Source: Candidatus Uhrbacteria bacterium CG10_big_fil_rev_8_21_14_0_10_48_11
Lineage (GTDB): Bacteria; Patescibacteriota; Patescibacteriia; GWA2-46-9
Assembly (NCBI GenBank): GCA_002793855.1
Contig: PFET01000009.1
Coordinates: 21,749-85,748 of the forward strand
Length of the DNA stretch: 64,000 nucleotides
Direction: 5' to 3'
In this document: positions 10,993 to 54,386 of the stretch, in pieces
How positions within the stretch are numbered: position 1 is the first letter of the stretch
Layout: each line of letters begins with the position of its first letter
Notes under the pieces: model-generated
Database searches by the model: none
The model's input: only the letters and a program-made list of their open reading frames with translations
What the model was told of the DNA's origin: nothing
Program-made: the position numbers and the translations under genes

Positions 10993-11718
10993 GTCTTTCG
11001 TCGCCTGACTACCCTCGCTAACTTCTGATATGGTGCCAGGCATCCAAAGAAGCCCATAATAAAGCAGAATGATGCCGGCGACCATGGCGGTAGCGCCTAA
11101 CACAATCCTCTCAACAAAAATGATTTTTGGGACAATCAAAATTGAAAGCGCTGAAAGCATTAAAGAAAACATCCCCGCAGCAAGATAGGCGGACCGACGA
11201 AAAACCACCATGTCGCTACGTCCCCTGTAACCGAGATAGAGAAAGGTTAGAGTAAAGGTAAGCGTGGTAGTACCAGCGACTACTCCAGTATAGCTACGCA
11301 GCCACTGCTCATACTGAGGCCACCAAAACACGTAAGGTCCAACCACTTCTCGTACGCTCGGTGAAGGATTAAGAAGCAGCCCAATAAAAAAAACGAGTCC
11401 AGCTGTGGCGAGAATAATTCCCGAAATAACGCCCCACTCCCTGCGGTCTAAAAAAATAAACGGTATCTGGATAAGAAGGACGCAAGAGACGTAAATAAAG
11501 AGATTTCCTATTGCGTCAATAACGGCGTTACCTACTCCGCTGGCAACAATGCCACCAAGCGCATAATTTAAAAACATAATCGTTACAACGGCAAACCATG
11601 CACCAAAATACCAAAGGGCTTCGTTTTTTCTCTGACGGTAAAGCGAAAAGACGCGCGTCGTTGCTCCAAGGGAAACGAGCGCGCTAATGAAACTAGCTAT
11701 GGGGATAATTGGAATCAT
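10984..11718 (-). CDS. Polytopic membrane protein of unknown function.
   Basis: It has about seven hydrophobic helices and no recognisable motif. The start is taken at MIPIIPIAS. It overlaps the clpB stop by 9 nt in the convergent direction. Confidence 0.4.
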   Translation of the reverse strand: MIPIIPIASFISALVSLGATTRVFSLYRQRKNEALWYFGAWFAVVTIMFLNYALGGIVASGVGNAVIDAIGNLFIYVSCVLLIQIPFIFLDRREWGVISGIILATAGLVFFIGLLLNPSPSVREVVGPYVFWWPQYEQWLRSYTGVVAGTTTLTFTLTFLYLGYRGRSDMVVFRRSAYLAAGMFSLMLSALSILIVPKIIFVERIVLGATAMVAGIILLYYGLLWMPGTISEVSEGSQATKDLV

Positions 11719-11807
11719 GTCTGCTACAGTATAGCACACCAGTTTGAGCTACCAAAAAAACAACGCCTTTTCTGTATACGTTTTGCGAAGGTTGCTATAC
11801 TAATCTT

Positions 11808-13658
11808 ATGAAATATCTTCTTGTTACGCCGAGGATACATTTACCCCGAGGTGTTCGCCAGTCTTATACCTATACCCTGTCAAATGCTAATACTGAGACC
11901 GTTGGGACCGGTACTCTTTGCGTTGTTCAATTCCGTTCGAGGAACGTAATAGGCATGGTTGAAGAGGTAGTGCGGCAACCCCTTAATGCTAAAAAGTTAA
12001 AATCAGTTACCACCATACTCCCCTACCCTCCGCTATCCGACACACAATTGTCGCTGCTCAATGAGCTTGCCCGAAGGTATGCAGCAACAAGAACTCAAGC
12101 AGTGCGAACAGTAGTACCTGACTTTCCGTTGCGCTTTATTCCGTCTGTTGAAAAAAGGACGGTAAGACGTAAATCTATAAAAGTAAAAAATATATCCAAG
12201 CTTTATCGTTATCTCACAAAAGCCAAGGGATCGCTCGTCATTACCGGCCGTGAAATGAACCCTACCGATAAAGCCATCGCTGACTATATTGTTACCCAAG
12301 CAAACAAAGGACAAGTACTTTGTTTATTTCCTGACCGCTACTCGCTAGAATGGGCTCTTCACCACTTTAGTGCGCAGCAAAATAGACGACCTAGTATTTA
12401 CCATGCAGGACTTTCTAAATCTACCCTAGCAACCACGTGGAAAAAAATTGCAACTGGAGAAGCGCAAATTATTTTTGGTACCCGTACAGCACTTTTTGCT
12501 CCTTTTGCCTCGCTCTGCTCTATTCTAGCTTTTAATGCCAGCGACGACAGCTACCGCTCCTGGGACATGCAGCCGCACTATGACGCCAGGGAGCTTGCAA
12601 TGGTTGTTGCAAAAAATAAAATGCCAAACTTTCTTTTTGCGGTGTTGCCATCATTCAGTATAACCGCGGGAGTTCCGCTTGTTCGCGTTCCTGCCACTAC
12701 CTTACCAAAACGCGTTGCTTTTGATCGCCGCGCTCTACCATACACGGAACGAAAAAAAATATTACCCGAAGAACTTATAAAAAAGATAGCTGCTGAAGAT
12801 AAACCTGTGCTTGTTTTTGCCAACAAACGTGGTTACGCTGCTCTTGTCTGTAGAGATTGCGGTTACCTGCCACGGTGCGAAAGTTGCGATCGAGCGCTCG
12901 TTTTAAAGTCTAAAAAAACAATAGCGACACTGCACTGTGAACGATGCAACGTAAACATTTCTACGCCAGAAACTTGCCCAGAGTGTACGGGGGCAAGTTT
13001 TCACTTTGTGGGAGCAGGAGTAGAAAGAATTGCGGAAGCCATTAAGAATGCCTTTCCTACTAAAACGGTACAAATCCTAAGTGCTAGCAATAAACAAAAC
13101 GTTATTCTTGCCAGTACTCTTGAAAATATACGACGGGATACCGTCGATATCATCGTGGCGACTGCTGTTATTTTGCCACGACTTTGGACCGTGCCAACGT
13201 TTGACCTTACTATTGTACTCGGTGCCGAGGGACTTTTTTTGCAGACTGATTGGCAGGCAAGTGAACGTGTTCTGGCTACCCTCGAGCAGCTAAGCGCACA
13301 TACCAGCGGCGAACTTATGGTCGACACCTACGGAAATGAAGACCCTGCGCTCAAAGCGTTTCTGGCAGGAACGACTGCTGATTTTTATAAACAAGAAATT
13401 AAACTGAGAAAGAAATTTAACTACCCGCCGTATGGAACGATTCTTACCCTGAGTGGTACTAGTAAAGAGCTAGACACACTCGCGGCAGTACTAAAAAAGG
13501 GCCAACTGGCAATCATAGAAATTATTTTACAACGCGAGGTCGGGGGCGCTATCAAAATGATAATACTTAAAGTAAGTAAAGAGGCTAGCCTTAAACCGCT
13601 TTTTGCTCTGCTGACCAGCGCCATTAAAGTTGACGTCAATCCAACAACGCTGTTATAG
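11808..13658 (+). CDS. priA: Primosomal protein N' (PriA) homologue with degenerate Walker A and B motifs.
   Basis: It has an N-terminal 3'-DNA-binding-domain-like segment and a helicase core alignable to PriA (IIFGTRTALFAPF, PHYDARE). The cysteine-rich zinc region is CRDCGYLPRCESCDRALV...LHCERCN....CPEC. GxTGSGKT is replaced by ITGREMNPTDK, and DEEHD by NASDD. Confidence 0.75.
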   Translation: MKYLLVTPRIHLPRGVRQSYTYTLSNANTETVGTGTLCVVQFRSRNVIGMVEEVVRQPLNAKKLKSVTTILPYPPLSDTQLSLLNELARRYAATRTQAVRTVVPDFPLRFIPSVEKRTVRRKSIKVKNISKLYRYLTKAKGSLVITGREMNPTDKAIADYIVTQANKGQVLCLFPDRYSLEWALHHFSAQQNRRPSIYHAGLSKSTLATTWKKIATGEAQIIFGTRTALFAPFASLCSILAFNASDDSYRSWDMQPHYDARELAMVVAKNKMPNFLFAVLPSFSITAGVPLVRVPATTLPKRVAFDRRALPYTERKKILPEELIKKIAAEDKPVLVFANKRGYAALVCRDCGYLPRCESCDRALVLKSKKTIATLHCERCNVNISTPETCPECTGASFHFVGAGVERIAEAIKNAFPTKTVQILSASNKQNVILASTLENIRRDTVDIIVATAVILPRLWTVPTFDLTIVLGAEGLFLQTDWQASERVLATLEQLSAHTSGELMVDTYGNEDPALKAFLAGTTADFYKQEIKLRKKFNYPPYGTILTLSGTSKELDTLAAVLKKGQLAIIEIILQREVGGAIKMIILKVSKEASLKPLFALLTSAIKVDVNPTTLL

Positions 13659-13665
13659 TCGGCCT

Positions 13666-14136
13666 ATGGCAACTATTTTACCATTGGTAACGCTCCCAGA
13701 CGAACGATTACACCAGCCGTCTGAAAAAGTGAGTCTTGCAGGGCTACAGCAACCAAGAATACAGACACTAATAGATGACATGATTGCGACCATGTGGAAG
13801 GCCGATGGTGTTGGTATTGCTGCGGTTCAGATTGGTAAACAGTTGCGTCTGGTTATTATTACCGACGGTGATACGCCAATAGAGCTTATTAATCCAAAAA
13901 TTTTATACCGTTCGCTTTCAAAAGACTCAATGGAGGAAGGCTGCCTTTCAGTTCCTGGTTTCTACGGTCCGGTGCGCCGCCCTAGAAGCGTCTACGCCCG
14001 TGCCTACAATCGACACGGAAAAAAGATAAGCATTAAGGCTACTGGTTTCATTGCTCGTATTATTCAACACGAAGTTGATCACACGAACGGTATCTTATTT
14101 GTTGACCGTGCGGATAGGGTGCTTCCAAACGAATAG
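13666..14136 (+). CDS. def: Peptide deformylase.
   Basis: Motifs GIGIAAVQIG, EGCLSVPG and QHEVDH are present. The start is taken at MATILPLVTLPDERL. Confidence 0.85.
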   Translation: MATILPLVTLPDERLHQPSEKVSLAGLQQPRIQTLIDDMIATMWKADGVGIAAVQIGKQLRLVIITDGDTPIELINPKILYRSLSKDSMEEGCLSVPGFYGPVRRPRSVYARAYNRHGKKISIKATGFIARIIQHEVDHTNGILFVDRADRVLPNE

Positions 14137-14144
14137 TTATTACT

Positions 14145-15062
14145 ATGGTGAAACCACGCGTTCTCTTCGTGGGAACAGGTTTTTTTGCCGCGACAATACT
14201 TGAGGCGCTTTTTGACACTAGCACGCTAGTCGGCGCAGTTACGCAACCACCTCGACCGCAAGGAAAAAATAAAGAACGACTAGACAACCCAGTCGCCGTT
14301 GTTGCCAAAGAAAAGAACGTGCCGTTACTAACGCCGGATAAAATTGGAACGAGTTTTGAAGTGCTAGAAGCGCTAACACCCGACGTTCTTGTTGTTGCAG
14401 ACTATGGTCAAATCATACCCGAGCGCATACTGCTTTTGCCCCCGCACGGGGCGCTGAACCTTCACCCTTCGCTGCTGCCAAGGCATCGTGGCGCTACACC
14501 AATTGAGTCTGCAATTTTAGAAGGAGACGATATAACCGGGGTTACCTTAATGGTTATGGATAGCAAAATGGATCACGGCCCCGTTGTTGCAGTCATAGAG
14601 CATAAACTTAGCGGTAACGAAACAGTGCTAGAACTTGAAGCGGTACTCGCGAGCAAAGCAGCAGCGCTACTTACTTCTACCTTACCAAACTACCTTGAGG
14701 GTACTGTTACCCCCCACGCCCAAGAACATAGCAAGGCAACTTTTTGTAAAATGCTTACCCGCGAGAAAGGCTACATTGACGGCAGCACAACGGTTTTGCA
14801 AGCGCTCAGAATGTACAGGGCGTACCAACCATGGCCAGGGATATGGACAACGGTAACAGTGAATAACAAACCCAAACGATTAAAGCTCCTTAAGGTAAAA
14901 GAGTGGAAAGATTTCTTACCAGAAGATACTAATGTGCTATTTAGAAATGACGACAAACTTGGTTTAAAACTTGCCGACGGCGCGCTGATAATTGAAGAAG
15001 CACAACTTGAAGGCAAAAAAGTGCAGCCAGCAAAAGACCTCATTAACGGACTCAGAGTTTAA
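14145..15062 (+). CDS. fmt: Methionyl-tRNA formyltransferase.
   Basis: The formyltransferase core LNLHPSLLPRHRGATPIESAIL is present, followed by a C-terminal Fmt domain. The def-fmt pair is the usual one. Confidence 0.85.
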   Translation: MVKPRVLFVGTGFFAATILEALFDTSTLVGAVTQPPRPQGKNKERLDNPVAVVAKEKNVPLLTPDKIGTSFEVLEALTPDVLVVADYGQIIPERILLLPPHGALNLHPSLLPRHRGATPIESAILEGDDITGVTLMVMDSKMDHGPVVAVIEHKLSGNETVLELEAVLASKAAALLTSTLPNYLEGTVTPHAQEHSKATFCKMLTREKGYIDGSTTVLQALRMYRAYQPWPGIWTTVTVNNKPKRLKLLKVKEWKDFLPEDTNVLFRNDDKLGLKLADGALIIEEAQLEGKKVQPAKDLINGLRV

Positions 15063-30735: not shown

Positions 30736-32550
30736 CTAACTTAACGTAATCGTTTGGCCTGGTTGCACGATACTTCCCTTTGAGGTATTTTGTTCATTTG
30801 TTTCTCTTGCACTTTTCAGATGCTCATCGCCTTGCTTTTTTTCTACAAATGGTTCAGCTTCTTTTTGTTTAACCTCATCGTCACTTTTATTTTCTATTGC
30901 AACTACGTTATTGATCACCAGAGGTATTTTCTCTTTTACGACGGCTGGTTTACTTGCTGGAACCGCACCCTGTCTGCCTTTCGCTCGCTCACTGCGTATG
31001 CGACTGAGGCACTCTTTGCAGTAAACAGGGCGTTTTCCATCTGGCTTAAAAGACAGCTTAGTAGGCTTACCGCACTCATTACAAACCGCATCATAGCTTA
31101 ACACGTTCTTTACTGGTTCGCTGGCTAATAACTGTTTCGCCTCAGACTGAGTTGCCGTCTTTGGCACTGCTGTTTTGTGGCTAGTAACAACTTGCGCACT
31201 TCTAGATCGTTCTGTTCTCGGAGGCGCGGAACTGGCAGCTTTGTGCAAATCTACGGCTTCTTGTTCGAGGGTACTTGCCCAGCGCGAAATCTTGTCTTCG
31301 ATAATTTCTCGCTCTTTTGCGTACCGCTCTCTAGACACACGAATAACTTTTTCACGATTACCGTAATTATTCGCTACCGGCTTAAGCGTATTTGCGGAAA
31401 ATGGCGTTGAGGCAACGCCATCAATCATTAACTTAAGGTAAATCTGCCACTTTGCTAGGTTAACCAAATCTTCTTCAGTGAAATAAGGGCTAAACTCTTT
31501 AACCAACAACTCCGCGTCAGTAGCGCCTACACGAAAGCATACAATCGTACCAACGTTACCAAAAACGGCAGCCTGCACTTCCTCGTCTAACTGTTCGACG
31601 TACTGATGTGCGATAATAAGGTTGAGGCGGTACTTACGGGCCTCTGACAAAATATTTGCAAACGACTCGGTGGCAAAGTTTTGAAATTCGTCGACATAAA
31701 GATAAAAATCTTTTCGCTCTTCTTCTGGCGTATCAATACGACCCATAGCTGCCAATTGAATTTGCGTAATCATCATTGCTCCCAGTAGAGCAGAAGTATC
31801 TTCTCCAATTCTTCCTTTTGATAAATTCAAAATAAGAATTTTTTGATTATCCATGATGTCACGAATATCAATAGAAGACTTTACCTGTCCCACAACATTG
31901 CGAATGAGAGCATTGGACAAAAACTGCCCAACTTTATTCTGAATTGGCGCAATAGCTTCCGCCTGAAAACGATCTGGATACTTTGAATATTCGTCTACCC
32001 AAAAACTTCTCACGACTGGATCCTGAATTTTTTCAATGACGCGTTTACGGTACGCTTTGTCCGTCAAAATGCGCAGTACACCAAGTAATGTTGATCCTGG
32101 ATAATCGAGTAAGGCGAGAATGGCATTCCGAAGCACGTACTCAAGTCGCGGTCCCCAAGAATCTGCCCAAATCTTTTTAAACACACCTACCAGTCCAGAA
32201 GCGATAAGATGCCGCACTTCGGGATTAACAGATTCTAAAATATTAAAAGCGATGGGAAAATTTAAATCTGCGGGGTTGAAATACACCACGTCATTTACCC
32301 TATTTGAAGGTATGAGCGGTAGTGTAGCTTCGGCCAGCTCACCGTGCGGATCAATAACCGCAATGCCGTTACCCGCCATAATGTCTGAATACACCATCTG
32401 CTTCAAAAGTTCAGACTTGCCCATACCGGTTTTACCGATAATGTACATGTGGCGACGCCGATCATCCCGTCGAATACCAAAAAGGCGGCACTTATCTCGG
32501 TAGTTCGTTTCAGCAAAAAAAGTTATATCTTGGTTGTTTGTGTTTAGCAT
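30736..32550 (-). CDS. Soluble P-loop ATPase related to the TraG/VirD4/TraD coupling-protein family. It has no N-terminal TM segment and carries a C-terminal Zn ribbon.
   Basis: Walker A IIGKTGMGKS is followed by VIDPHGEL. Walker B and the family signature read YLYVDEFQNFATES...ARKYRLNLIIAHQYVEQLDEEVQAAVFGNVGTIVCFRVGATDAELLVKEFS (compare the TraG-D_C pattern DEFxNL...Q...QL...N.gt.i.f). The C-terminal zinc ribbon is CNECGKPTKLSFKPDGKRPVYCKEC, followed by a Lys/Glu-rich tail. Confidence 0.6.
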   Translation of the reverse strand: MLNTNNQDITFFAETNYRDKCRLFGIRRDDRRRHMYIIGKTGMGKSELLKQMVYSDIMAGNGIAVIDPHGELAEATLPLIPSNRVNDVVYFNPADLNFPIAFNILESVNPEVRHLIASGLVGVFKKIWADSWGPRLEYVLRNAILALLDYPGSTLLGVLRILTDKAYRKRVIEKIQDPVVRSFWVDEYSKYPDRFQAEAIAPIQNKVGQFLSNALIRNVVGQVKSSIDIRDIMDNQKILILNLSKGRIGEDTSALLGAMMITQIQLAAMGRIDTPEEERKDFYLYVDEFQNFATESFANILSEARKYRLNLIIAHQYVEQLDEEVQAAVFGNVGTIVCFRVGATDAELLVKEFSPYFTEEDLVNLAKWQIYLKLMIDGVASTPFSANTLKPVANNYGNREKVIRVSRERYAKEREIIEDKISRWASTLEQEAVDLHKAASSAPPRTERSRSAQVVTSHKTAVPKTATQSEAKQLLASEPVKNVLSYDAVCNECGKPTKLSFKPDGKRPVYCKECLSRIRSERAKGRQGAVPASKPAVVKEKIPLVINNVVAIENKSDDEVKQKEAEPFVEKKQGDEHLKSARETNEQNTSKGSIVQPGQTITLS

Positions 32551-32556
32551 AACCTT

Positions 32557-33981
32557 CTAAGCTGTCGGTAAATCTGCGGGTGGTTTTGGATTTACCTCTC
32601 CTTCCTGCCGCTTCGTCTCACTGGGGTAATTAGTGCCAATTTCGCTCGCGTAGGGCAAAGTAACTGGTGGGGAGGTGTGCTTAAAGTCCGTCTTTTGAAC
32701 TGCTGCTCTAATGGGGGTCGTTTCAGTCATCATTGGAAAATGCCAAAGTGTGGCCAACTCTTCGATATTCATAACATACGGTTCTCGGCCAAACTCAAAC
32801 TCACGCTCTTTGTATCGATGCATCAGTTTTCTGCGCTTCAAATTTTTTCGCCAATCGGTAAAAAAGTAGTTAGCATGAACGCCGACGTGTTTTGTGTCAG
32901 GCTTAAGAGAATTTAAGTTTTCGGTGTTAAATTGCTTAATGGCGCCAATGAACGCCTCACGTCCATGCTGTACATTAAACCGTTCTTTGGTGGCAATATA
33001 AACAAATCGAATTTTTGTTTCGTAGCCTATCTTTTTGACCTTCATTGACATCGCCTCAATACGATCCCTGTCGTAGGGCGAAAGTAGCAATAACCCGCCA
33101 AGTGAGCCTTTCTCCTGATGCCCCTCTTCGAGTACACCCGAACCACCACCAAATTGATTCGACGCGGACTGCCCAAACTTTTGAATTTCTCCTGCGATGC
33201 TAGACAGTAGCGAGCCCGTCTCCTTTGCGTGACCCATAGTATCCTTAATTTTATGAATCACTTCTTTCTTCCACGAGTTTGTTATAGGCAAAATAATAAT
33301 CTGTAGCCACAGCTGTTCACCCGGACCAAGTTTACCCATTGTTTCTATAACAGCGTTCATCGGGTCTTTCATCTCTTTACTCATTATGTGCTCAAACTCT
33401 ACGTAGGTACGAATAGGTAGCGCCTCATTCTCTACATAAACGACCTCTGTACCGTACATATCATAGCGCTCGTCGGGATACACCGTCGGATACCCCTCCA
33501 CATAATCTTCTACTTCAGTAATTTGAGCGTCTGGATACTGACTATACACCGCCGCTTCCACTAAGTCTCGGAACTTGTCAACCGTTCTAATCAAAAACTG
33601 AACGTATCCTTCAATACTTACAATTTCTAAAGAGAAGGACTCCTGCACGGCACCATACCAATATTTTTCCAGCATTGTTTTTGTGCCATGTGCACCAGCA
33701 AGATGAGCAAAAATATTTTCAACTGCTTTTGGTGATTGCACGTTATCTCGTGGCACATCTATCGCCAGAAGTACCCAATGACACTTTTGTCTTTGGTACT
33801 CTCTCTTAATGTAGCGCATCCAAAAAAACCATCCGAGCCGCACAAAAGCAATAACAAAAATAATCCACCCACCGTGAATCACCAAATAGAAAAAAAGTTC
33901 CCAGCTAGCAATGAGCGGAGAAGCGCCGTATATGGCTGCATGCAGTAACTCAGCAAAACGTGACGGTGTTGCAACGTCCAT
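32557..33981 (-). CDS. Membrane protein with 2 N-terminal TM helices and an uncharacterised soluble domain of about 400 aa.
   Basis: Hydrophobic helices LIASWELFFYLVIHGGWIIFVIAFV and WFFW lie near the N-terminus. The rest has no motif I recognise. It is wedged between the regulator and the ATPase with gaps of 3 nt and 6 nt. Confidence 0.45.
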   Translation of the reverse strand: MDVATPSRFAELLHAAIYGASPLIASWELFFYLVIHGGWIIFVIAFVRLGWFFWMRYIKREYQRQKCHWVLLAIDVPRDNVQSPKAVENIFAHLAGAHGTKTMLEKYWYGAVQESFSLEIVSIEGYVQFLIRTVDKFRDLVEAAVYSQYPDAQITEVEDYVEGYPTVYPDERYDMYGTEVVYVENEALPIRTYVEFEHIMSKEMKDPMNAVIETMGKLGPGEQLWLQIIILPITNSWKKEVIHKIKDTMGHAKETGSLLSSIAGEIQKFGQSASNQFGGGSGVLEEGHQEKGSLGGLLLLSPYDRDRIEAMSMKVKKIGYETKIRFVYIATKERFNVQHGREAFIGAIKQFNTENLNSLKPDTKHVGVHANYFFTDWRKNLKRRKLMHRYKEREFEFGREPYVMNIEELATLWHFPMMTETTPIRAAVQKTDFKHTSPPVTLPYASEIGTNYPSETKRQEGEVNPKPPADLPTA

Positions 33982-33984
33982 AGA

Positions 33985-35199
33985 TTAGGCTTGCTGAACA
34001 AGATGGTAATTACCTTCTTTGTCTTTCGTAAACATTGTAGAATTGAGAAGCGCCAAATGAATTGTCTGTTTCTTTACCATTCGTCGTTCAAGTACGGCGC
34101 GTACTATCTGCTCTCGCTTCATACTGCCCTCTTTTTGAAGCAACTCACGAACAACATCAACTACGGTACCTGGCTGGTATCCCCACTCTCTAAGCGCGTA
34201 AAGCCCACGGCCAACAAGAACAAACCGTTTGTCTAAAATGAGTTCGTTATGAACCGATGGCGCCTTGGCAACTTTCGAATCAAAATGCATCGAATTAATT
34301 TTTTCGGTAATCACATTAAAATGTAAGGGCTTTCCGTGATGCCGAAGAATTAAATAAATTTTATCATTCATTCGTCGCGGATGAATGGTTTGCCAAGAAC
34401 GCATCCCCCACTCTCCAAAAATATTCTGCGCAAGCTCACCAGCTGCTGATAAATAGGCGGTCAGGACGCGATTTTCTTCCTCGGTAGTTGGTGGGTCATT
34501 TGTACCCGGAGAGCCAATAAACTCTCTTGCAATATGTACTGGTTCAGCCACTAGTTGTTGACGGCGCTCAAGGTAAAAAGGTTGTTGCCGAAAGCGTTGT
34601 AGAAGATCGCCACGCTCTATCGGGTATCCTACCGTTTTTATTGCTTCCACAAACGATTCTACTGCTCCCTTTAGTAATGCTGTATCAACGCCAGTTAAAA
34701 CATAAATTGGGCGAAGACAAACATCGTCTTCCCGGTATTCAACAAAACCATCAAGTAAATGGTCGAGCAAAAAATGTAGGCAGGCTTTTGTCGAAGCTTC
34801 ATGTTTTTCGTCACCGATCCTTCCTTGCGAGTAATCCAGGAGCTGATCTATAAAAAAAACTGCCTCTAACGCGCCTCCGTAACTACGCAACAGGTATTCT
34901 GTTGTTCTGATGAACAACTTTAGCTCCTCGTTCTTTGCGGAGAGCGCCCGCAATTTGTCTACAGAAGATTTAGCAATTTGACGGATACGTTCTCTGGTAA
35001 CCGATAACTGATCTCCAATCTCTTCCAGCGTTTCTGTTTGACCCCCTTCTGGAATTGCAAATCTGCGACGAACAACATCGGCCTCGCGGTCCGCTAGGGT
35101 GCTAAGCAGATGATTCACTACCGCGACAGGGTCAAACGTACGTATTTCTTCTGCGTGTCGCTGGGCAATTAATTTATCTAAAATACTATACTCTGACAT
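33985..35199 (-). CDS. Putative DNA-binding or transcription protein. It has an N-terminal sigma-70 region-4 helix-turn-helix and a C-terminal HARE-HTH-like winged helix.
   Basis: Residues about 35-85 read LADREADVVRRRFAIPEGGQTETLEEIGDQLSVTRERIRQIAKSSVDKLR, matching sigma-70 region 4.2. Residues about 290-360 read IYLILRHHGKPLHFNVITEKI........ILDKRFVLVGRGLYALREWGY, matching the HARE-HTH pattern of RpoE/delta (Pm.f.ei...DgRF..lg.g.WgLr.W). Confidence 0.55.
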   Translation of the reverse strand: MSEYSILDKLIAQRHAEEIRTFDPVAVVNHLLSTLADREADVVRRRFAIPEGGQTETLEEIGDQLSVTRERIRQIAKSSVDKLRALSAKNEELKLFIRTTEYLLRSYGGALEAVFFIDQLLDYSQGRIGDEKHEASTKACLHFLLDHLLDGFVEYREDDVCLRPIYVLTGVDTALLKGAVESFVEAIKTVGYPIERGDLLQRFRQQPFYLERRQQLVAEPVHIAREFIGSPGTNDPPTTEEENRVLTAYLSAAGELAQNIFGEWGMRSWQTIHPRRMNDKIYLILRHHGKPLHFNVITEKINSMHFDSKVAKAPSVHNELILDKRFVLVGRGLYALREWGYQPGTVVDVVRELLQKEGSMKREQIVRAVLERRMVKKQTIHLALLNSTMFTKDKEGNYHLVQQA

Positions 35200-35354: not shown

Positions 35355-36305
35355 TTAGTAACGTGCGATTCGTCGCTTTTCTTTCCAGCTATACCAGCTA
35401 ATCAAAAGTGGCGAAGCTATAAAAATTGAACTGTAGGTACCAACGAAAATACCAATGGTAAGTGCTAGTACGAAATAGTGAATACTTTCTCCACCAAAGA
35501 CCAAAGTAAAAATAAGCACGAGCAATGTCGTAAACGAAGTGTTTATCGATCGACCCATTGTTTCGTTTAAGCTCCGGTTTACAACTCGGGAAAAAGAATC
35601 AGTGGCGCGATGCAAGTTCTCTCTAATACGATCAAATACAACAATGGTATCGTGAACCGAAAATCCAAGTAAGGTCAGTAGTGCAGTAATGAAAAGCACG
35701 TTTACTTCAACACCAAGGTAGTGTCCAAGAATAGAAAAAATACCAACCGTAATAATGGTGTCGTGAAAGAGAGCGATAATGGCCGCCGTTCCAAACTGCC
35801 ATGAGGGTACCGGACGAGAAACCTTTCTGAACGCCCAAGCGATATACAGAATGATTGCCCCCAAAACAGCACTCAATGCAAAAATTGATTTTTGTCGTAG
35901 CTCAGCTCCAATAGTAGGACCGATGGCGGTAAAACGCTCTTCGCTAATACTATCCCCTTTCTCTCCGCCAAATGTTTTCTCTAATGCTGCGAGTAAGGTC
36001 GCGTGATCCTCTTCGCTTAACGCCTTACCTTCTTTGGCGCCTATTCGCAGAGTTGCCCCATTGGTACCAATGGGAGTAATGTCTACGGTTCCAATAGTTT
36101 CTAGTACCGCCGCTGAAATGTCCGCTATCGCTGGACGATTACCAGCAAAGGTAATTTCCATTAACGATCCCCCAGTAAAATCAATACCGTATTTGAGTCC
36201 CCACCCTGGAAGTAAAATAGCCAGCGCGCACAGTAGCACCAAGGTACCCGAAAAGAGGTAGGCAATTCTGCGATAACCAACAATATTTATATTTGTACGT
36301 CTCAT
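35355..36305 (-). CDS. secF: Protein-export membrane protein SecF.
   Basis: It has six TM helices with a SecF periplasmic loop and a 4-nt overlap with secD. Confidence 0.85.
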   Translation of the reverse strand: MRRTNINIVGYRRIAYLFSGTLVLLCALAILLPGWGLKYGIDFTGGSLMEITFAGNRPAIADISAAVLETIGTVDITPIGTNGATLRIGAKEGKALSEEDHATLLAALEKTFGGEKGDSISEERFTAIGPTIGAELRQKSIFALSAVLGAIILYIAWAFRKVSRPVPSWQFGTAAIIALFHDTIITVGIFSILGHYLGVEVNVLFITALLTLLGFSVHDTIVVFDRIRENLHRATDSFSRVVNRSLNETMGRSINTSFTTLLVLIFTLVFGGESIHYFVLALTIGIFVGTYSSIFIASPLLISWYSWKEKRRIARY

Positions 36306-38110
36306 ACTTCGGTCGAATTATTTTTTCGCGCCACGCCATAAAGCCACAGTCGTTTACTTGTACCGTTAGCCACCACAAGCCTTAAGAATGTACGAGTAAC
36401 GATAATCGCGCTAAACATACTTACCAAAATACCAAGAGCGAGCGTCAACGCAAACCCACGAACAACGCTGGTTCCAAACCAGTAAAGAATCGTACAGGTA
36501 AGAAGCGAGGATACATTTGAATCGCGAATGGACGTCCAAGCACGCTGGAAACCAACTTCGATAGCTGATTGTAGCGGCCTTGCCTCAGCAAGCTCTTCCC
36601 TAAGGCGTTCAAAAATAAGCACGTTGGCGTCCACTGCCATACCAATAGAGAGAATAAACCCAGTTACTCCTGCAAGCGTCAACGTTACTGGCCAAAACTT
36701 GAAAAGCGCTAGGGCAATGCTGGCGTACACCAGCAAAGCAAACACCGACAAAAGACCCGGCAAGCGATAGTAAAGAATCATAAACAGTGCAACTAGAAGA
36801 AACCCGATAAACGCCGCTTCTAAACTCTGCTGAACTGCAACGGCGCCAAGCTTAGCCCCGATGGTTTGCTGCGAAACAAGTGCGATTGGTACTGGCAATG
36901 CACCGGCATTCAAACGCTGTGCTAACAGTTTTGCCTCGTCAATAGTGAAGCTTCCAGTAATAACCGCCTCGCCACCAACAATTGCCTGTTGGACTGTTGG
37001 GACACTAATCGGCTGACCATCAAGGAAAATACCAACCGGTTTACCAATATCACGCTGCGTAATTTCTTCAAAAAGTTTCGATCCTTCTGCGTTAAAGCGT
37101 AGCTGCACCTGCGGCTGGTTTGTCTGCTGGGCAAAAACGACCGTTGCTTTATCAAGCTGCTTACCTGATAACTGAGTGTTCTTCCAGCCAGCGTTTGGGT
37201 CATTTGGCAAAAAATCTCGGGCCGACGGAGCACTGATAAGAATATGACGAGCGTGAACCTCTTGAACCCCGTCGCTGTTGGTTCTCTCGTCAAGACGTTG
37301 TATCACATGATGCCCATAAGCGGTTTTGATAGGCGTTTGGGTAATCTGATTTTCTTTGAGTTGGTTAAAGAGTGCGTCACCGAATTCTGCCACAACGCTG
37401 GCTTTCGTGATGTAGTCAAGGTCACCGCCATTGTCTTTCGAGCCGGGATCATCAGAAAGCTCTTTCGCAATTTTTGCAAAATCTTCTCCGGCATTGAGGC
37501 GCTTAATAACCGATTCGGCTTTACGCTTGGCAGCCGCCTGTCCGTCATCAATCTGTTTTTGCTGGGCTGGCGTAATGGTCGGAGCTACCGCATTTTCATC
37601 CTGCTCTTTAAATTCTAGCAATGGCGTCTCACCGATCTGCTTAATGGCATCATCCACGTTCTCTACACCCGCAAGTTCAACCAATACGCGCCACTGGTTC
37701 CCAGAGCGTTCTGTTTGTACCACTGGCTCAGCAACACCAAAGGCGTTCACGCGCCGCTCAATGACGTCACGGACGCCCTCAAGCGCTGAGACCTTATCAC
37801 TGTCAGGAATTTTACTGGTATCCGCGTCATAAAGTAACTGCGTCCCGCCAACAAGATCAAGGCCGAGTCGAAACGGCGTATCGACAAAGTACGGAACGCC
37901 AGCCTTCAATACTCCCCCAACCCAACCCAAACCAGTCGGATACTGCTTAGCACCGAGTTCTGCTAATTTTGGATTTACCGCATCTACCGCCTTATTGTAA
38001 TAAACAGGATAGTTATAAAGTCCCGCAACAATAGTAAGCACGATGATTGCCACGAAGGTCCACCGAACTCGTCCTCGGCGGGTGCGGAAGGTAACGCGTA
38101 CGCCCATCAA
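36302..38110 (-). CDS. secD: Protein-export membrane protein SecD carrying a parvulin-like insertion in the periplasmic P1 region.
   Basis: The SecD N-terminal TM and P1 base (LGLDLVGG) are present, as are the head subdomain (IFLDGQPISVPTVQQAIVGGEAVITGSFTIDEAKLLAQRLNAGALP) and the C-terminal six TM helices. Residues about 175-300 are alignable to parvulin PPIase (see finding). Confidence 0.85.
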   Translation of the reverse strand: MMGVRVTFRTRRGRVRWTFVAIIVLTIVAGLYNYPVYYNKAVDAVNPKLAELGAKQYPTGLGWVGGVLKAGVPYFVDTPFRLGLDLVGGTQLLYDADTSKIPDSDKVSALEGVRDVIERRVNAFGVAEPVVQTERSGNQWRVLVELAGVENVDDAIKQIGETPLLEFKEQDENAVAPTITPAQQKQIDDGQAAAKRKAESVIKRLNAGEDFAKIAKELSDDPGSKDNGGDLDYITKASVVAEFGDALFNQLKENQITQTPIKTAYGHHVIQRLDERTNSDGVQEVHARHILISAPSARDFLPNDPNAGWKNTQLSGKQLDKATVVFAQQTNQPQVQLRFNAEGSKLFEEITQRDIGKPVGIFLDGQPISVPTVQQAIVGGEAVITGSFTIDEAKLLAQRLNAGALPVPIALVSQQTIGAKLGAVAVQQSLEAAFIGFLLVALFMILYYRLPGLLSVFALLVYASIALALFKFWPVTLTLAGVTGFILSIGMAVDANVLIFERLREELAEARPLQSAIEVGFQRAWTSIRDSNVSSLLTCTILYWFGTSVVRGFALTLALGILVSMFSAIIVTRTFLRLVVANGTSKRLWLYGVARKNNSTEV

Positions 38111-49287: not shown

Positions 49288-49323
49288 CACTTGGCAGTTT
49301 TTCTTCCGTACTGTCAAAAAAAA

Positions 49324-49332
49324 TGGTATAGT
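49324..49332 (+). promoter_or_regulatory. Extended -10 element (TGgTATAGT) ending 6 nt before the pilB ATG. This suggests a leaderless pilB transcript.
   Basis: TGGTATAGT lies at 49324-49332 and the ATG at 49339. No Shine-Dalgarno sequence is visible. Confidence 0.3.
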
Positions 49333-49338
49333 AAAACT

Positions 49339-51090
49339 ATGTTTACCGACAAACAGCTGGTAAAAATTATTGATTCCAGTGGCATTTTTTCTGCTCCAGA
49401 TATTAAAAAGTACCAAGGCGAAGCAGACGCTAAAAGACAACCGTTGGAAAATTTCCTACTCGGTAAGCGCCTAATTTCTGAAGATAGCCTTTACGAAAAT
49501 GCTGCCGGCGTATACAGTGTTCCCTTTATAAAACTTAGAGGTAAGCCAATTAGAAAGGACGTTCTCTTCTTGGTACCAGAACCACTTGCCAAACACTACC
49601 AAATCATTGCCTACGATACCGAAGGTGACGATACCATCAAAGTAGTAAGCACTGACCCTGAAAATTTGCAGGCCGTTGAGTTTTTACGCAAAAAAACGGC
49701 CAAAAAGATAGAGCTCTCTTTGACCACTCCTGACGAGTGGCAAGAGCTAATGAAGCAGTACCACAAAAGTCTCCAGGCTGAGTTTAGTGAGCTATCAGCA
49801 AAACCAGGGAAAAAATCTACCACCAAGGCTGGCTCGAAGAAGATTGATAAGGACCTAAAAGAACTTGCCGAAGATCTTCCCGTTATTGGGGTTGTCGATA
49901 CGATTCTGGAGTACGCCATATTTGAAGGCGCGTCGGACATTCACATTGAGCCCACTGAAAAAGATCTTAACGTCCGCTATCGAATTGATGGTGTCTTGAA
50001 GAATGTCATGAACCTTCCCAAAACAATCCAACCCGGCGTGACTGCTCGTATCAAGGTACTCTCTACGCTGAAGCTAGACGAACATCGCCTCCCACAGGAT
50101 GGTCGTTTTAAGATTGAAACGGAAGAATACAGAGTTGCGTTTCGTGTTTCTGTTTTGCCAACATTTGATGGGGAAAAAATTGTATTGCGTCTTCTCGATG
50201 AAGGTAGCCAAATACTGACTCTCGCTCAGCTCGGACTACAACCCAAAGAGCTTGATCTGCTACAGATAAACATAACGAAGCCGCACGGTATGATTCTGGT
50301 TACCGGCCCTACAGGTTCCGGAAAGACGACGACACTCTACACAGTTCTTAACGTGCTGAACAAACCAGAGGTTAACATTTCTACCGTAGAAGATCCCATC
50401 GAGTACCGTATGCAGGGCATTAACCAAAGTCAGGTAAACCCAAAAATAGGTTATACCTTCGCTATGGGCCTACGTGCGTTACTGCGTCAAGACCCAAACA
50501 TTATCATGGTTGGAGAAATTCGAGATTTAGAAACTGCTGAAATCGCCGTCAATGCCGCAATGACCGGTCACCTTCTCCTTTCTACACTGCACACCAATGA
50601 CGCCGTCACGGCAATACCTCGCTTGTTTGATATGGGCATCCCGCCATTCTTGGTGGCCTCCACTACAAATATGGTCATGGCGCAACGATTGGTCCGTCGC
50701 ATCTGTAGCCTCTGCATTTCAAGTTATACGCTAGACAAGGCAGCACTAGATGAACTTAAAAAACAATTCGATCTAGGAGCGATTCTCAATGCATTGGTTC
50801 GTCATGGCAGTGTCGCGAAAAAAACAAAATCTTTTGGTGATCTACTTTTTTACCGAGGTAAAGGTTGTAAACAGTGCGGTGATGACGGCTATCGCGGCCG
50901 CGTTGGCGTCTATGAAATATTAAATATCAGCAAAGAAGTAAATGATGCTATTCTACGAAAAGCGAGCCGTGAAGAGCTCGTAGAGCTTGCCAGAAAACAA
51001 GGAATGACAACTCTCCTTGAGGACGGCTTCCTTAAGGCAAAGGCTGGTATAACCACCATAGAAGAGGTGCTCAGGGTAACCCAAGAATAG
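49339..51090 (+). CDS. pilB: Type IV pilus assembly ATPase (GspE/PilB family).
   Basis: It has a T2SSE N-terminal domain, a GPTGSGKTTT Walker A, Asp and His boxes, and a tetracysteine motif (CSLC...CKQCG). The ORF-track alternative start is the TTG at 49291. Confidence 0.85.
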   Translation: MFTDKQLVKIIDSSGIFSAPDIKKYQGEADAKRQPLENFLLGKRLISEDSLYENAAGVYSVPFIKLRGKPIRKDVLFLVPEPLAKHYQIIAYDTEGDDTIKVVSTDPENLQAVEFLRKKTAKKIELSLTTPDEWQELMKQYHKSLQAEFSELSAKPGKKSTTKAGSKKIDKDLKELAEDLPVIGVVDTILEYAIFEGASDIHIEPTEKDLNVRYRIDGVLKNVMNLPKTIQPGVTARIKVLSTLKLDEHRLPQDGRFKIETEEYRVAFRVSVLPTFDGEKIVLRLLDEGSQILTLAQLGLQPKELDLLQINITKPHGMILVTGPTGSGKTTTLYTVLNVLNKPEVNISTVEDPIEYRMQGINQSQVNPKIGYTFAMGLRALLRQDPNIIMVGEIRDLETAEIAVNAAMTGHLLLSTLHTNDAVTAIPRLFDMGIPPFLVASTTNMVMAQRLVRRICSLCISSYTLDKAALDELKKQFDLGAILNALVRHGSVAKKTKSFGDLLFYRGKGCKQCGDDGYRGRVGVYEILNISKEVNDAILRKASREELVELARKQGMTTLLEDGFLKAKAGITTIEEVLRVTQE

Positions 51091-51091
51091 T

Positions 51092-52213
51092 ATGGCAATA
51101 ACCTACGTAGACGAAAAAACCAACGAGGTTGCTGCGACCCCTGCAACGGAAAAACGATCCCGAAAAATGCCATGGGAAAGCTTGAGCACCAAGCAGGTAC
51201 TATTTTTGACACAACAGTTGCAAATTATGATGCATGCCGGTGTCCCACTAACAAAGACACTTGAAACGTTAAAAGCACAAGCAACTACAAAGTACCTACG
51301 GACACTACTTGAAAGAATAGAGGCTGACGTCGAGCAAGGGAAATCGTTGGCCGATGCCTTGCGTCCTTACGAAAAAGATTTCGGAGAGCTCATGATTAAT
51401 ATGATTGCTGCCGGTGAAGCCAGTGGTCGACTCGACGAAGTACTCGAGCAGCTCTATCTCCAAATGAAAAAAGATAATGAAATTGTTTCGCGCGTGCGTG
51501 GTGCCCTCATTTATCCAGCAATCGTAGTAGCCGCAATGTTTGGTATTGGTACTTTTATGATTGTCTTTGTTGTACCGAAACTTATTGGACTTTTTCAAGA
51601 AGTAAAAGTATCGCTTCCTTTACCGACTCGTATCCTTATTGCCATGAGCGATTTTTTTACCCACCATGGCTTCATCGCGGCCACTTCAATTACAGCTTTT
51701 ATTTTATTGTTTGCGTGGACCATTAGACAACCTTGGGGTAAAAAAGTATGGCACACCATACTACTCCACTCCCCTGTCATAGGAGCAATTATTAAAAAGG
51801 TAAATGTGGCACGTTTCGCAAGGACAGTTAGTTCTTTTTTAAAAACAGATATCCCTGTCGTAAAAACATTAGAAACAACGGCGCACGTCTTGGGAAATGT
51901 TCACTATCAAAATGCTCTTATTGATGCCTCTCAAAAAATAACTAAAGGCATTACCTTGGGAGAAGCACTGCGGCCACATAAAAATCTTTTTAACCCAACT
52001 ATTTTGCAAATGATCTCTGTTGGTGAGCAGGCCGGTAAGCTTGATGATATGCTTGCTGAGGCGGCAAATTTTTACGAAGCAGAAGTGAACCAAACCATGG
52101 AAACGCTTCCTTCGTTGCTCGAACCGATTTTGATGATTTTACTTGGTTTTGGTGTAGGTGGTATGGCGGTAGCCATTATTCTACCTCTGTACACGTTGAC
52201 ACAGGCATTTTAG
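51092..52213 (+). CDS. pilC: Type IV pilus inner-membrane platform protein (GspF/PilC family).
   Basis: Two T2SSF repeats and three TM helices. It abuts pilB. Confidence 0.85.
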   Translation: MAITYVDEKTNEVAATPATEKRSRKMPWESLSTKQVLFLTQQLQIMMHAGVPLTKTLETLKAQATTKYLRTLLERIEADVEQGKSLADALRPYEKDFGELMINMIAAGEASGRLDEVLEQLYLQMKKDNEIVSRVRGALIYPAIVVAAMFGIGTFMIVFVVPKLIGLFQEVKVSLPLPTRILIAMSDFFTHHGFIAATSITAFILLFAWTIRQPWGKKVWHTILLHSPVIGAIIKKVNVARFARTVSSFLKTDIPVVKTLETTAHVLGNVHYQNALIDASQKITKGITLGEALRPHKNLFNPTILQMISVGEQAGKLDDMLAEAANFYEAEVNQTMETLPSLLEPILMILLGFGVGGMAVAIILPLYTLTQAF

Positions 52214-52217
52214 CTAT

Positions 52218-53285
52218 ATGGATTTTTCATTTTCTCTACGAAGCCCAAGACCTCCCTCTGCTTTCGGTCTTGATCTTTCAGACGATACTCTAAAAATTGC
52301 CCAGCTACGTTACCACGGTAAAAAAATTACCGTCGACGTACTAATAGAGAAACGGCTACCCGCAAAAGCAATTGTAGACGGTGAAATAAAAAATATTGAT
52401 GCAGTAAGCGAGGCACTAGCTACTGTTTATGGTGAGCAACGACATAAGCTTATTTCTAGTGCCATTATCGCCCTTCCTGAGGCGCAAACCTTTATTACCA
52501 CTATTACGGTTCCCAAAAAGGGCAATACTGCCTTAAAGCAACTGTTGCAAGAAGCCCTGCCGGAATATCTACCCGACAGTGTTGATAAACTTTATATTGA
52601 CACGCAGACTTTGTCCGAGAACGACACGAGCTGGATTGTACTTGTTGGCGCAGCACCACAAATTTTAGTTGAACCATACTTAGCTATTGCGGAACGTGCT
52701 GGCGTGTCGCCTCTCGTTCTTGATATTGAGCCAATTGCAACGGCAAATGCACTTATCCCCCACGCAGAAACGACGCCCAAAACAAGAGCAATAATAAACC
52801 TAGGACAACGCCGAGGAAATCTTATCCTGCACAGCTCCGGTTCTGTTCTTTTCACTGCTAGCCTCCCTATTTCAGGGGAAGCTGTTACCGAAGAATTAAA
52901 GGAACAACTTAAAATCACGAAAGAGCAAGCAGAAAAAACAAAGCGCTTATGCGGGTTAGACCCTAAAAAATGTGAGGGCGTGCTTCGGCAGGTGCTTGAA
53001 CGCATGGTTCAACAGCTGCTTGAACGCATCGGAGAGAACCAAAAATACTACCGAGACCACTTTGCTGCAGCAACCAAAATTGAGGAAATTATTCTTGCGG
53101 GTGGTGGCGCGCACCTCATCGGGCTTGATACAGTGCTCTCGGATGCCTTGGGTATTCCTGTACGATTAGGTACACTATGGGAAAATGTATCAGTTGAGAC
53201 ACCTCCGGAACTTGAATCAGAGCTTCGCTATGCAACAGTAGTTGGACTAGCAGAAAGAGCTCTCAACGACGAAGCAACGCTATGA
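52218..53285 (+). CDS. pilM: Type IV pilus assembly protein PilM (actin-like ATPase fold).
   Basis: FtsA/PilM-like sequence in its operon position. Confidence 0.8.
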   Translation: MDFSFSLRSPRPPSAFGLDLSDDTLKIAQLRYHGKKITVDVLIEKRLPAKAIVDGEIKNIDAVSEALATVYGEQRHKLISSAIIALPEAQTFITTITVPKKGNTALKQLLQEALPEYLPDSVDKLYIDTQTLSENDTSWIVLVGAAPQILVEPYLAIAERAGVSPLVLDIEPIATANALIPHAETTPKTRAIINLGQRRGNLILHSSGSVLFTASLPISGEAVTEELKEQLKITKEQAEKTKRLCGLDPKKCEGVLRQVLERMVQQLLERIGENQKYYRDHFAAATKIEEIILAGGGAHLIGLDTVLSDALGIPVRLGTLWENVSVETPPELESELRYATVVGLAERALNDEATL

Positions 53286-53824
53286 TACTGACCTTAAACC
53301 TCATCCCAGAATCGATAAAGCAAAGGGTTCGAATGCAACGACTCTACGGTATGCTTAAAACTACACTGGTAGTAACAGCTTTATTCGTACTGGTCATGGG
53401 AATCTTCGTGCTTATCGGCAGACTAATTTTACAACAGCAATTTACGCGCATTGTAAACGAAACAACTCTAATAACGGCAAGCAACCGAAAAGTTGAAGGT
53501 GAGATTAGAGACCTTAACGGTAAAGTAATAACTGCCAAAAAAATTATAACCAGTACAAACCCCTGGGCGGAGTTAGTTTACGAAATAGTATCTATTTTAC
53601 CCAACGAAGTAACCGTACACTCAATTGGTGTTACAGATAAAGGACAAAGTACTATTACTGGTGTCGCTACGACCCGCGACGCGCTTTTGGCATTTAAAGA
53701 TTCTTTAGAAAAATCTCCATTTGCAACTGATATTGCGCTGCCAATTACCGACTTATTGAAACGCGAAGACGCTCCTTTTACCATCACTTTTACAGTAAAA
53801 CTAGATGCGGTTACCAAACGTTAA
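53282..53824 (+). CDS. pilN: PilN-like bitopic membrane protein.
   Basis: One N-terminal TM helix, then a coiled coil and a ferredoxin-like fold region. It overlaps pilM by 4 nt. Confidence 0.6.
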   Translation: MILTLNLIPESIKQRVRMQRLYGMLKTTLVVTALFVLVMGIFVLIGRLILQQQFTRIVNETTLITASNRKVEGEIRDLNGKVITAKKIITSTNPWAELVYEIVSILPNEVTVHSIGVTDKGQSTITGVATTRDALLAFKDSLEKSPFATDIALPITDLLKREDAPFTITFTVKLDAVTKR

Positions 53825-54386
53825 CATTAGTCGACAGCACCTTTGGATGATGGCTTTTGTCACCATTGTGTTTGCGGTGCCGGTTGGCATTATACTACCT
53901 AACGCTCTTCAAATTAAATCTACGGCCAACGCTATATATAGTCAGTACTACTTTCTAGAAGAGCGCAATCGCCTAGGCTACGACATCCGCAAAGCCAGCA
54001 AAGACTACGGCCAAGCGCTTCCTTACATCGATCAACTGGAGTCGCTATCTATTGCTAAAGGAGATGAACTTACTTTCATTACAGCCGTTGAATCTTTGGC
54101 GGATGATTACAAGGTAACGGTTTCACTCAATCTTTCACTTGATAAAGCTACTTCTGAAAGAAACGGGCACCTACCATTCACCTTGCTGGTAAATGGTACC
54201 TTTGCGCATACGATGACCTACCTAGGAGCCCTCAGAACACTTCCGATGACAACCAGCATTACTAAACTTAGCATTGCCAAAAAAACATTTTCTGCTAAAG
54301 ATCGTTCTCTTTCGTCTGCAGACTTGATTTCTGCCACGCTAGAAGGTTTTGTCTATCGTACAACAGTTGCTACTACCGCAAAGTAA
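53805..54386 (+). CDS. PilO-like bitopic membrane protein.
   Basis: One N-terminal TM helix, about 190 aa, following pilN. Confidence 0.45.
   Translation: MRLPNVNISRQHLWMMAFVTIVFAVPVGIILPNALQIKSTANAIYSQYYFLEERNRLGYDIRKASKDYGQALPYIDQLESLSIAKGDELTFITAVESLADDYKVTVSLNLSLDKATSERNGHLPFTLLVNGTFAHTMTYLGALRTLPMTTSITKLSIAKKTFSAKDRSLSSADLISATLEGFVYRTTVATTAK

Follow-up and report, generated by a model that had tools for sequence, protein, structure and literature searches.

Can a PriA protein that has lost every motif of its ATP site still serve replication restart in the genome that encodes it? The question is raised by a priA-like gene in a 64 kb stretch of DNA from Candidatus Uhrbacteria, a member of the Patescibacteria or candidate phyla radiation (CPR), and this whole stretch is called the window below. 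The gene is a single open reading frame (ORF) for a protein of 616 aa, which an initial annotation, made from the letters alone, had taken for a PriA homologue with degenerate Walker A and Walker B motifs. According to our analysis the window protein is confirmed by sequence comparison as a PriA homologue over its full length, and the motif loss is wider than first noted, motifs III, V and VI being also replaced. We consider it likely that the gene is the priA orthologue of its genome turned into a pseudohelicase, whose product would act as a non-catalytic platform for restart.

The homology is visible at the level of profiles, of single sequences and of the predicted fold. The N-terminal 3' DNA-end binding domain (3'BD) is matched by Pfam PF17764 with E=5e-13 and 49.1 bits against a cutoff of 22.7, over positions 2-96 of the 96 in the profile, and its motifs LPR..Q..TY and G.LV..FR are conserved across the sub-clade to which the window protein belongs. 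A phmmer search against PDB sequences returned PriA chains only (6dcr, 8fak, 4nl4 and 6dgd, with E about 1e-35). The AlphaFold2 model of the product of 11808-13655, built from 58 relatives, has a mean pLDDT of 92.3 and a pTM of 0.91, with both RecA-like lobes at high confidence, and in a Foldseek comparison with the PDB ranks 1-9 are all occupied by PriA (E from 1.8e-40 to 5.7e-29, TMq up to 0.84), the remaining SF2 helicases trailing at E of 1e-10 or weaker. The top match is 8fak_H, the E. coli PriA of a PriA/PriB/fork complex (E=1.8e-40, TMq 0.84, rmsd 3.7 Å); against the PriA crystal structures bound to ADP or to double-stranded DNA the model gives TMq of 0.61-0.69 and rmsd of 8-10. The predicted conformation may be closer to the fork- and PriB-bound 8FAK than to the other PriA crystal forms, which we regard as suggestive only.

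What is left of the ATP site was read from a MAFFT alignment of 180 sequences, in which the window protein was set beside its relatives and canonical PriAs (coordinates of all elements are given in Table 1). Motif I lies inside the stretch LVITGREMNPTDKA (residues 143-156, nt 12234-12275) and is aligned without gaps, G-REMNPTDK-AI standing opposite the canonical G-VTGSGKTE-VY, with the Walker A lysine replaced by Thr153, the Mg-binding threonine by Asp154 and two glycines of the P-loop by Met150 and Pro152. In motif II the row LAFNASDDSYRS stands against the canonical VVDEEHDxxYKQ (LAFNASDD-SYRS opposite VVDEEHDx-xYKQ), the place of D-E-E-H is taken by F242-N243-A244-S245 with Phe and Asn for the Walker B Asp and Glu, and the HMMER pairwise alignment with E. 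coli PriA has the identical register. The earlier reading of this box as NASDDSY (residues 243-249, nt 12534-12554) was right in placing a degenerate box at this site, and required only a trivial shift by one residue upstream. In the AlphaFold2 model a strand at 142-146, a loop at 147-154 and a helix at 155-165 represent beta1, the P-loop and alpha1, and a further strand at 236-241 precedes the Walker B position, so that the secondary structure agrees with the registration by alignment.

Patterns of the type GK[ST], GxxGxGK and DExH, DExD or DExQ are found neither in the whole protein nor in the six frames of 11701-13760. This six-frame pattern search and the register of the alignment rule out a frameshift, a hidden intact motif and the mis-registration of which the initial annotation itself had warned. 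Pfam DEAD and ResIII have no match in the window protein, and Helicase_C reaches E=0.027, below its cutoff, on residues 157-227 of lobe 1. The aligned sequences confirm that this protein has lost all its ATP-binding motifs (I, II, III, V and VI).

With Lys changed to Thr, Gly to Met and Pro, Asp and Glu to Phe and Asn, and both arginines of motif VI gone, the best-supported reading is the one predicted at the outset, namely a protein that would be dead as an ATPase and as a helicase. One can think instead of a residual NTPase or translocase with a non-canonical nucleotide site, as the model is confident in both RecA-like lobes and E. coli PriA has been suggested to have a weaker second nucleotide site, though one never located structurally (PMC5778457). 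We find this very improbable: the P-loop carries proline and acidic residues and no lysine, neither the Asp/Glu of Walker B nor the two arginine fingers are present, and the residues that replaced them at the ATP site are not conserved within the clade, unlike what would be expected of an active site.

Outside the ATP site the protein has kept much of what characterises PriA, and the expectation that the DNA-binding and zinc modules survive was borne out. Eight cysteines (C348, C351, C357, C360, C377, C380, C390 and C393), inserted in helicase lobe 2, line up with the cysteines of canonical PriAs and are predicted to form two zinc sites. Motif Ia is partly kept, as is the motif GTRTALF of lobe 1, together with the loop after motif II, which we take to be the aromatic-rich loop. 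At the C-terminus residues 546-616 are confidently modelled, and the conservation of R534, PP540-541, D609 and P612 matches that in canonical PriAs. Where E. coli PriA has its winged-helix domain, the window protein has a linker with pLDDT of 50-60, falling below 50 at residues 118-128 (disordered), where the alignment of the clade is also variable. The winged-helix domain is equally absent from canonical short PriAs, for example P0048 with its Walker A at residue 148.

The relatives indicate that these features are not peculiar to one protein. A profile was searched exhaustively against 1.84 billion representatives at 50% identity, with 15,305 matches at E of 1e-3 or better, and the state of motifs I, II and VI was classified by alignment for the best 150 of these cluster representatives: 72 are canonical in the three motifs, 67 are without all three and 11 are partial. 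Judged by these sequences, motif-less PriA appears common among those of CPR type. Nine of the 11 partial representatives (P0043, P0045, P0057, P0066, P0098, P0106, P0110, P0117 and P0137) keep DE.[HQ] alone at the aligned position, with the P-loop and the motif VI arginines gone; in P0043 the match is incidental, being DEGH within FNADDEGH and no kept DEEH box. Most of the DE.[HQ]-only relatives look like intermediates in the erosion of the ATP site.

The contrast between catalytic and other positions is sharp in this set. Among the 67 degenerate representatives the G/G/K/T of the P-loop, the D/E/H of Walker B and the arginines of motif VI, all invariant in canonical PriAs, are variable, whereas seven of the eight zinc-region cysteines are invariant in 67/67 degenerate and 72/72 canonical representatives, the eighth, C380, being Cys in 66/67 and 72/72. 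G224, R226 and F230 of GTRxAxF are found in 62, 60 and 62 of the 67, against 72, 72 and 67 of the 72 canonical ones, and the remaining seven degenerate proteins have K in place of R226; P175 of motif Ia is conserved in 62/67 and 72/72. Degenerate and canonical PriAs show about the same conservation at P256 and Y258, in the loop that follows motif II, and at E486, R534, P540-P541 and D609. Free drift at catalytic positions combined with fixed non-catalytic landmarks supports the assignment of a pseudoenzyme signature to these sequences.

The window protein's own sub-clade comprises 17 representatives (the window protein, P0002, P0032-P0044, P0046 and P0085), within which the P-loop stretch is unconserved and the flanking elements are conserved. 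The comparison of orthologues, which the initial annotation had proposed as a check, found the motif losses of the window protein also in its closest relative, P0002 (46% identity), and in 15 more clade members; the loss is thus no chance feature. The ORFs of the relatives are intact across many lineages at 25-46% identity, and from the sequences we judge that the degenerate priA is under selection and not decaying. This bears on the idea of a relic, a functionless gene heading for loss in the course of CPR genome reduction. CPR genomes are indeed reduced, and Rocha et al. (PMC1193525) reported no PriA for some intracellular endosymbionts and most mollicutes, nor for A. aeolicus and D. radiodurans, the D. 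radiodurans entry being superseded by the later characterisation of its PriA (Lopper 2015, PMC4504706). Yet full-length frames that persist across lineages down to 25-30% identity, the near-complete invariance of the cysteines and of the other landmarks, the confident AlphaFold2 model and a conserved gene order leave such a relic with hardly any probability.

This gene order is also what identifies the gene as priA. In the window priA is followed by def (peptide deformylase) and fmt (methionyl-tRNA formyltransferase), an order known from Bacillus subtilis as well, and the same order is seen at eight further loci (L001 and L003-L009). For P0002 (L001) it is given by ORF order and sizes only; for the degenerate P0032 (31% identity; L005-L007) the surroundings read gltX-wecG/NUDIX-ligT-clpB-...-priA-def-fmt-Wzy-GT2-GT2-GT4-flippase, and priA-def-fmt recurs around the degenerate P0039 (L009) and P0059 (L003, L004). 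A canonical short PriA, P0048 (L008), stands in priA-def-fmt too. As degenerate and canonical relatives share one slot, the window gene is a positional orthologue and no extra paralogue. A search of genome contigs with the window protein alone had returned only two loci.

Several observations weigh against the restart platform that we favour, and they have to be put next to those in its support. The curated models are not satisfied: all NCBIfam priA equivalog models score the window protein at 160-244 bits, under their cutoffs, TIGR00595 giving 211.9 bits against 230.35 and the PRK05580 sub-models 160-244 bits against 763-1249, and Pfam PriA_C (PF18074) and Zn_ribbon_PriA have no significant match in it. 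Neither PriB/DnaT nor DnaD/DnaB/DnaI was found in the window; this lineage would not be expected to have such partners. The clade has furthermore its own conserved motifs, SWDxQPxYDxR, ATxxILxRLWxLP at the position of motif V, and WRAxE, which could mark a new function beyond structural upkeep, and while tblastn with five PriA queries ruled out a second priA within the 64 kb searched, an intact copy may lie elsewhere in the genome.

The last two points are those on which a neofunctionalised PriA derivative would be built, a DNA-binding scaffold for some process other than restart, with restart left to a canonical PriA or another route; the divergence from canonical PriAs, at 21-30% identity, goes in the same direction. 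The initial annotation had named as its alternative a protein derived from PriA and serving another role. It is disfavoured by the gene order, the degenerate gene sitting in the very slot of the canonical PriA of a related lineage, by the lack of a second priA in the window, and by the fact that conservation falls here on the parts that serve restart in E. coli, namely the 3'BD, the cysteine-rich region and the landmarks of the C-terminus. We keep it as a rival and rate it unlikely. We would call the window protein a PriA orthologue but not a helicase: it lacks the catalytic motifs and stays under the curated scores, and we accept it as a PriA because of its fold, its 3'BD, its zinc region and its synteny.

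For the restart platform we propose the following. The protein would retain the architecture of PriA (3'BD, two RecA-like lobes, a cysteine-rich region with two zincs and a C-terminal domain), and ATP would be neither bound nor hydrolysed. It would recognise abandoned forks or D-loops, the 3'BD holding the 3' end of the nascent leading strand and the lobes and cysteine-rich region contributing further DNA surfaces, and would serve as a passive platform on which the replicative helicase could be reloaded, directly or via a partner. Because the duplex lagging-strand arm would not be unwound, its substrates would be limited to forks in which single-stranded DNA (ssDNA) of the lagging-strand template is already exposed, another helicase being needed for the rest.

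We infer this role from three precedents, and on the side of the window protein it is the structural scaffold that sequence and structure prediction together support best. The first precedent is E. coli PriA K230R (priA300), which is devoid of ATPase, helicase and translocase activity and behaves almost as wild type, supporting the PriA-PriB pathway and not the PriA-PriC pathway (PMC5778457); it may be seen as a laboratory analogue of the natural state of the window protein. The second is the PriA of D. radiodurans, with poor Walker A and B motifs, which has no ATPase or unwinding activity and binds ssDNA, forks and DnaB (Lopper, Boone and Morrow 2015, PMC4504706). The third is the reshaping of E. 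coli PriA by fork binding, upon which the cysteine-rich region encircles the lagging-strand ssDNA and a partner-docking surface becomes exposed (PMC10175261), a reshaping that a duplex lagging arm fails to trigger (PMC13594977).

The concept of a PriA pseudohelicase is therefore already known from Deinococcus-Thermus, and its biochemistry has been measured only for the D. radiodurans protein (PMC4504706). Both proteins are PriA orthologues with catalytic Walker A and B residues off consensus, and for both a role as non-catalytic restart scaffold is proposed. In Deinococcus-Thermus a change of Lys to Arg in the GKT of Walker A was highlighted and motifs I and II are generally poor (PMC4504706). 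The window protein is more extreme, with Lys changed to Thr, Thr to Asp and Asp-Glu to Phe-Asn, and with motifs I, II, III, V and VI unrecognisable; it is also short, has no winged-helix domain and belongs to a patescibacterial host. Given this host, an origin independent of the Deinococcus-Thermus pseudohelicases is likely, our comparison set being one without Deinococcus-Thermus sequences.

With the PriAs of E. coli and K. pneumoniae (8FAK, 6DCR, 4NL4, 6DGD) the window protein has in common the fold and the domain order, the insertion with eight cysteines included, and the elements GTRxALF, the YxxxxxPxYxAR loop, NRRG and YPP; it differs by the missing ATP-binding motifs and winged-helix domain, at an identity of about 21%. 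The canonical short PriAs of CPR and related lineages (for example P0048, P0189, P0190, P0202) resemble it in length, about 640-670 aa, and in the absence of the winged helix, P0048 also in its priA-def-fmt locus, and differ in having kept GVTGSGKT, DE[EA]H, SATPS, GTQMxxKGWDxP and QxAGRxGR. A third comparison is with actinobacterial PriA, called 'smaller and very divergent' by Rocha et al. 2005 (PMC1193525). In P0027-P0031, of which P0028 and P0029 are from Nocardia sp., motifs I, II and VI are gone or unrecognisable and the 3'BD and zinc cysteines are kept, as in the window protein; the lineage and the insertions are different, the best matches of the window protein to PRK14873 amount to only 83-111 bits, and the grouping of actinobacterial PriA with the degenerate proteins in the tree may be long-branch attraction. 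From these sequences we conclude that degenerate PriAs extend beyond Deinococcus-Thermus and CPR. A further set, P0182-P0185 (P0184 from Demequina sp.), has the PF17764 3'BD as its sole Pfam annotation.

How far the phenomenon reaches within CPR can be outlined from the relatives. A search from P0059, a member of a second degenerate lineage, found short PriAs of both kinds, canonical and degenerate, about equally far from the query (33-47% identity to P0059), with the degenerate P0200 named 'Candidatus Parcubacteria bacterium' and the canonical P0202 'Candidatus Gracilibacteria bacterium'. The taxonomy of the wider degenerate group rests on few named matches, namely Uhrbacteria, 'Patescibacteria group' and the Parcubacteria protein P0200. 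When 58 aligned degenerate proteins served as the query of a word-indexed protein search, the result was 31 rows (4 new), nearly those of the single-sequence query, and members of the alignment itself were missed. In the neighbour-joining tree the degenerate proteins form a long-branched grade or clade, and long-branch attraction prevents this tree from deciding between single and multiple origins.

We may even suggest, as a tentative and rather doubtful extension, that much of CPR/Patescibacteria has independently, perhaps repeatedly, turned PriA into an ATP-independent adaptor for motorless restart. The cysteine-rich region would be held rotated in a 'switched-on' state, for which the clade-specific ILxRLWxLP in place of motif V would offer a new partner-binding or locking surface, and restart in these very small genomes would proceed by direct contact of PriA with DnaB or a loader and with no PriA motor; the model, matching fork-bound 8FAK better than apo PriA, would be in line with it. 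A stepwise loss would agree with the existence of partial forms in which DE.[HQ] alone is left.

Our literature search found nothing relevant on PriA in the candidate phyla radiation or Patescibacteria, and a CPR/Patescibacteria PriA with every ATP-site motif eroded, seen in nearly half of the nearest clusters, appears to be unreported. If a census bears this out, helicase-independent PriA would be a common natural state and no curiosity, which would correct a textbook generalisation on PriA; the many natural separation-of-function variants could then be used to find the PriA surfaces that suffice for reloading of the replisome. An annotation gap would be corrected as well. Curated models miss such PriAs, the window protein for one scoring below the TIGR00595 cutoff, and inventories of CPR genes may wrongly score priA as absent. 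The window protein itself is deposited at NCBI as 'hypothetical protein COV04_02515' (P0001, 567 aa; Candidatus Uhrbacteria bacterium CG10_big_fil_rev_8_21_14_0_10), with its start at Met50, so that part of the 3'BD is cut off (residues 1-49, window 11808-11955). We favour the ATG at 11808 as the start because the Pfam 3'BD spans residues 10-104 and the first 49 residues are conserved in relatives.

Table 1. The priA-like gene of the window, its elements and the two genes that follow it (positions in the window).
Feature	Positions	Strand	Remarks
priA-like gene, 616 aa	11808..13658	+	single ORF; full-length PriA homologue without ATP-binding motifs
3' DNA-end binding domain (3'BD), residues 10-104	11835..12119	+	Pfam PF17764 PriA_3primeBD
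Linker, residues 105-130, at the winged-helix position of E. coli PriA	12120..12197	+	short, poorly conserved
Degenerate Walker A / motif I, GREMNPTD (canonical GVTGSGKT)	12246..12269	+	alignment, model register
Motif Ia-like LCLFPDR (canonical LxLxPEI), partly kept	12318..12338	+	alignment
Kept GTRTALF motif, helicase lobe 1	12477..12497	+	alignment
Degenerate Walker B / motif II, FNAS (canonical DEEH)	12531..12542	+	alignment, HMMER
Kept loop after motif II, YRSWDMQPHYDARE (canonical YKQxxxPxYxAR; clade motif SWDxQPxYDxR)	12552..12593	+	alignment
Degenerate motif III, AVLPS (canonical SATPS)	12639..12653	+	alignment
Cysteine-rich region, 8 Cys (CxxC x4), two predicted Zn sites	12849..12986	+	insertion in helicase lobe 2
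Motif V position, ATAVILPRLWTVP (canonical GTQxxAKGHxFP)	13158..13196	+	clade-specific conserved ATxxILxRLWxLP instead
Degenerate motif VI, QLSAHTSG (canonical QVxGRAGR)	13287..13310	+	alignment; both arginines gone
End of lobe 2 (NYPPYG) and C-terminal domain, final conserved KVDVNP	13419..13655	+	conserved residues, confident model
def (peptide deformylase), directly downstream	13666..14136	+	Pfam PF01327 E=7e-46
fmt (methionyl-tRNA formyltransferase)	14145..15062	+	Pfam PF00551 and PF02911

Towards its 3' end the priA-like gene contains a site resembling a promoter, TTGACG-18 nt-TATAGT with a TG upstream (13630-13659, + strand), which has 10 of 12 matches to the consensus and stops 7 nt upstream of the ATG of def (13666). 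This consensus match suggests a putative promoter internal to the gene and a nearly leaderless def transcript.

Apart from the priA-like gene, Pfam domain scans recognised no replication protein in the window, and some other of its genes deserve mention. On the minus strand a SecD homologue (36302-38110) contains a peptidyl-prolyl isomerase domain of the PPIC type (Rotamase_3, at about residues 168-274), located between the N-terminal P1 segment of SecD and the P1 head. Three adjacent genes on the same strand (30736-35199) lie amid housekeeping genes and encode a TraG/TrwB/HerA-like coupling ATPase of 603 aa with a treble-clef zinc finger, a 473-aa ORF without Pfam match, and a protein with sigma-70 region 4 and a HARE-HTH domain. 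A type IV pilus assembly cluster on the plus strand (49291-54386) includes a PilB-like T2SSE ATPase with an MshEN domain, a PilC-like T2SSF protein, PilM and PilN, together with an ORF of 193 aa without Pfam match.

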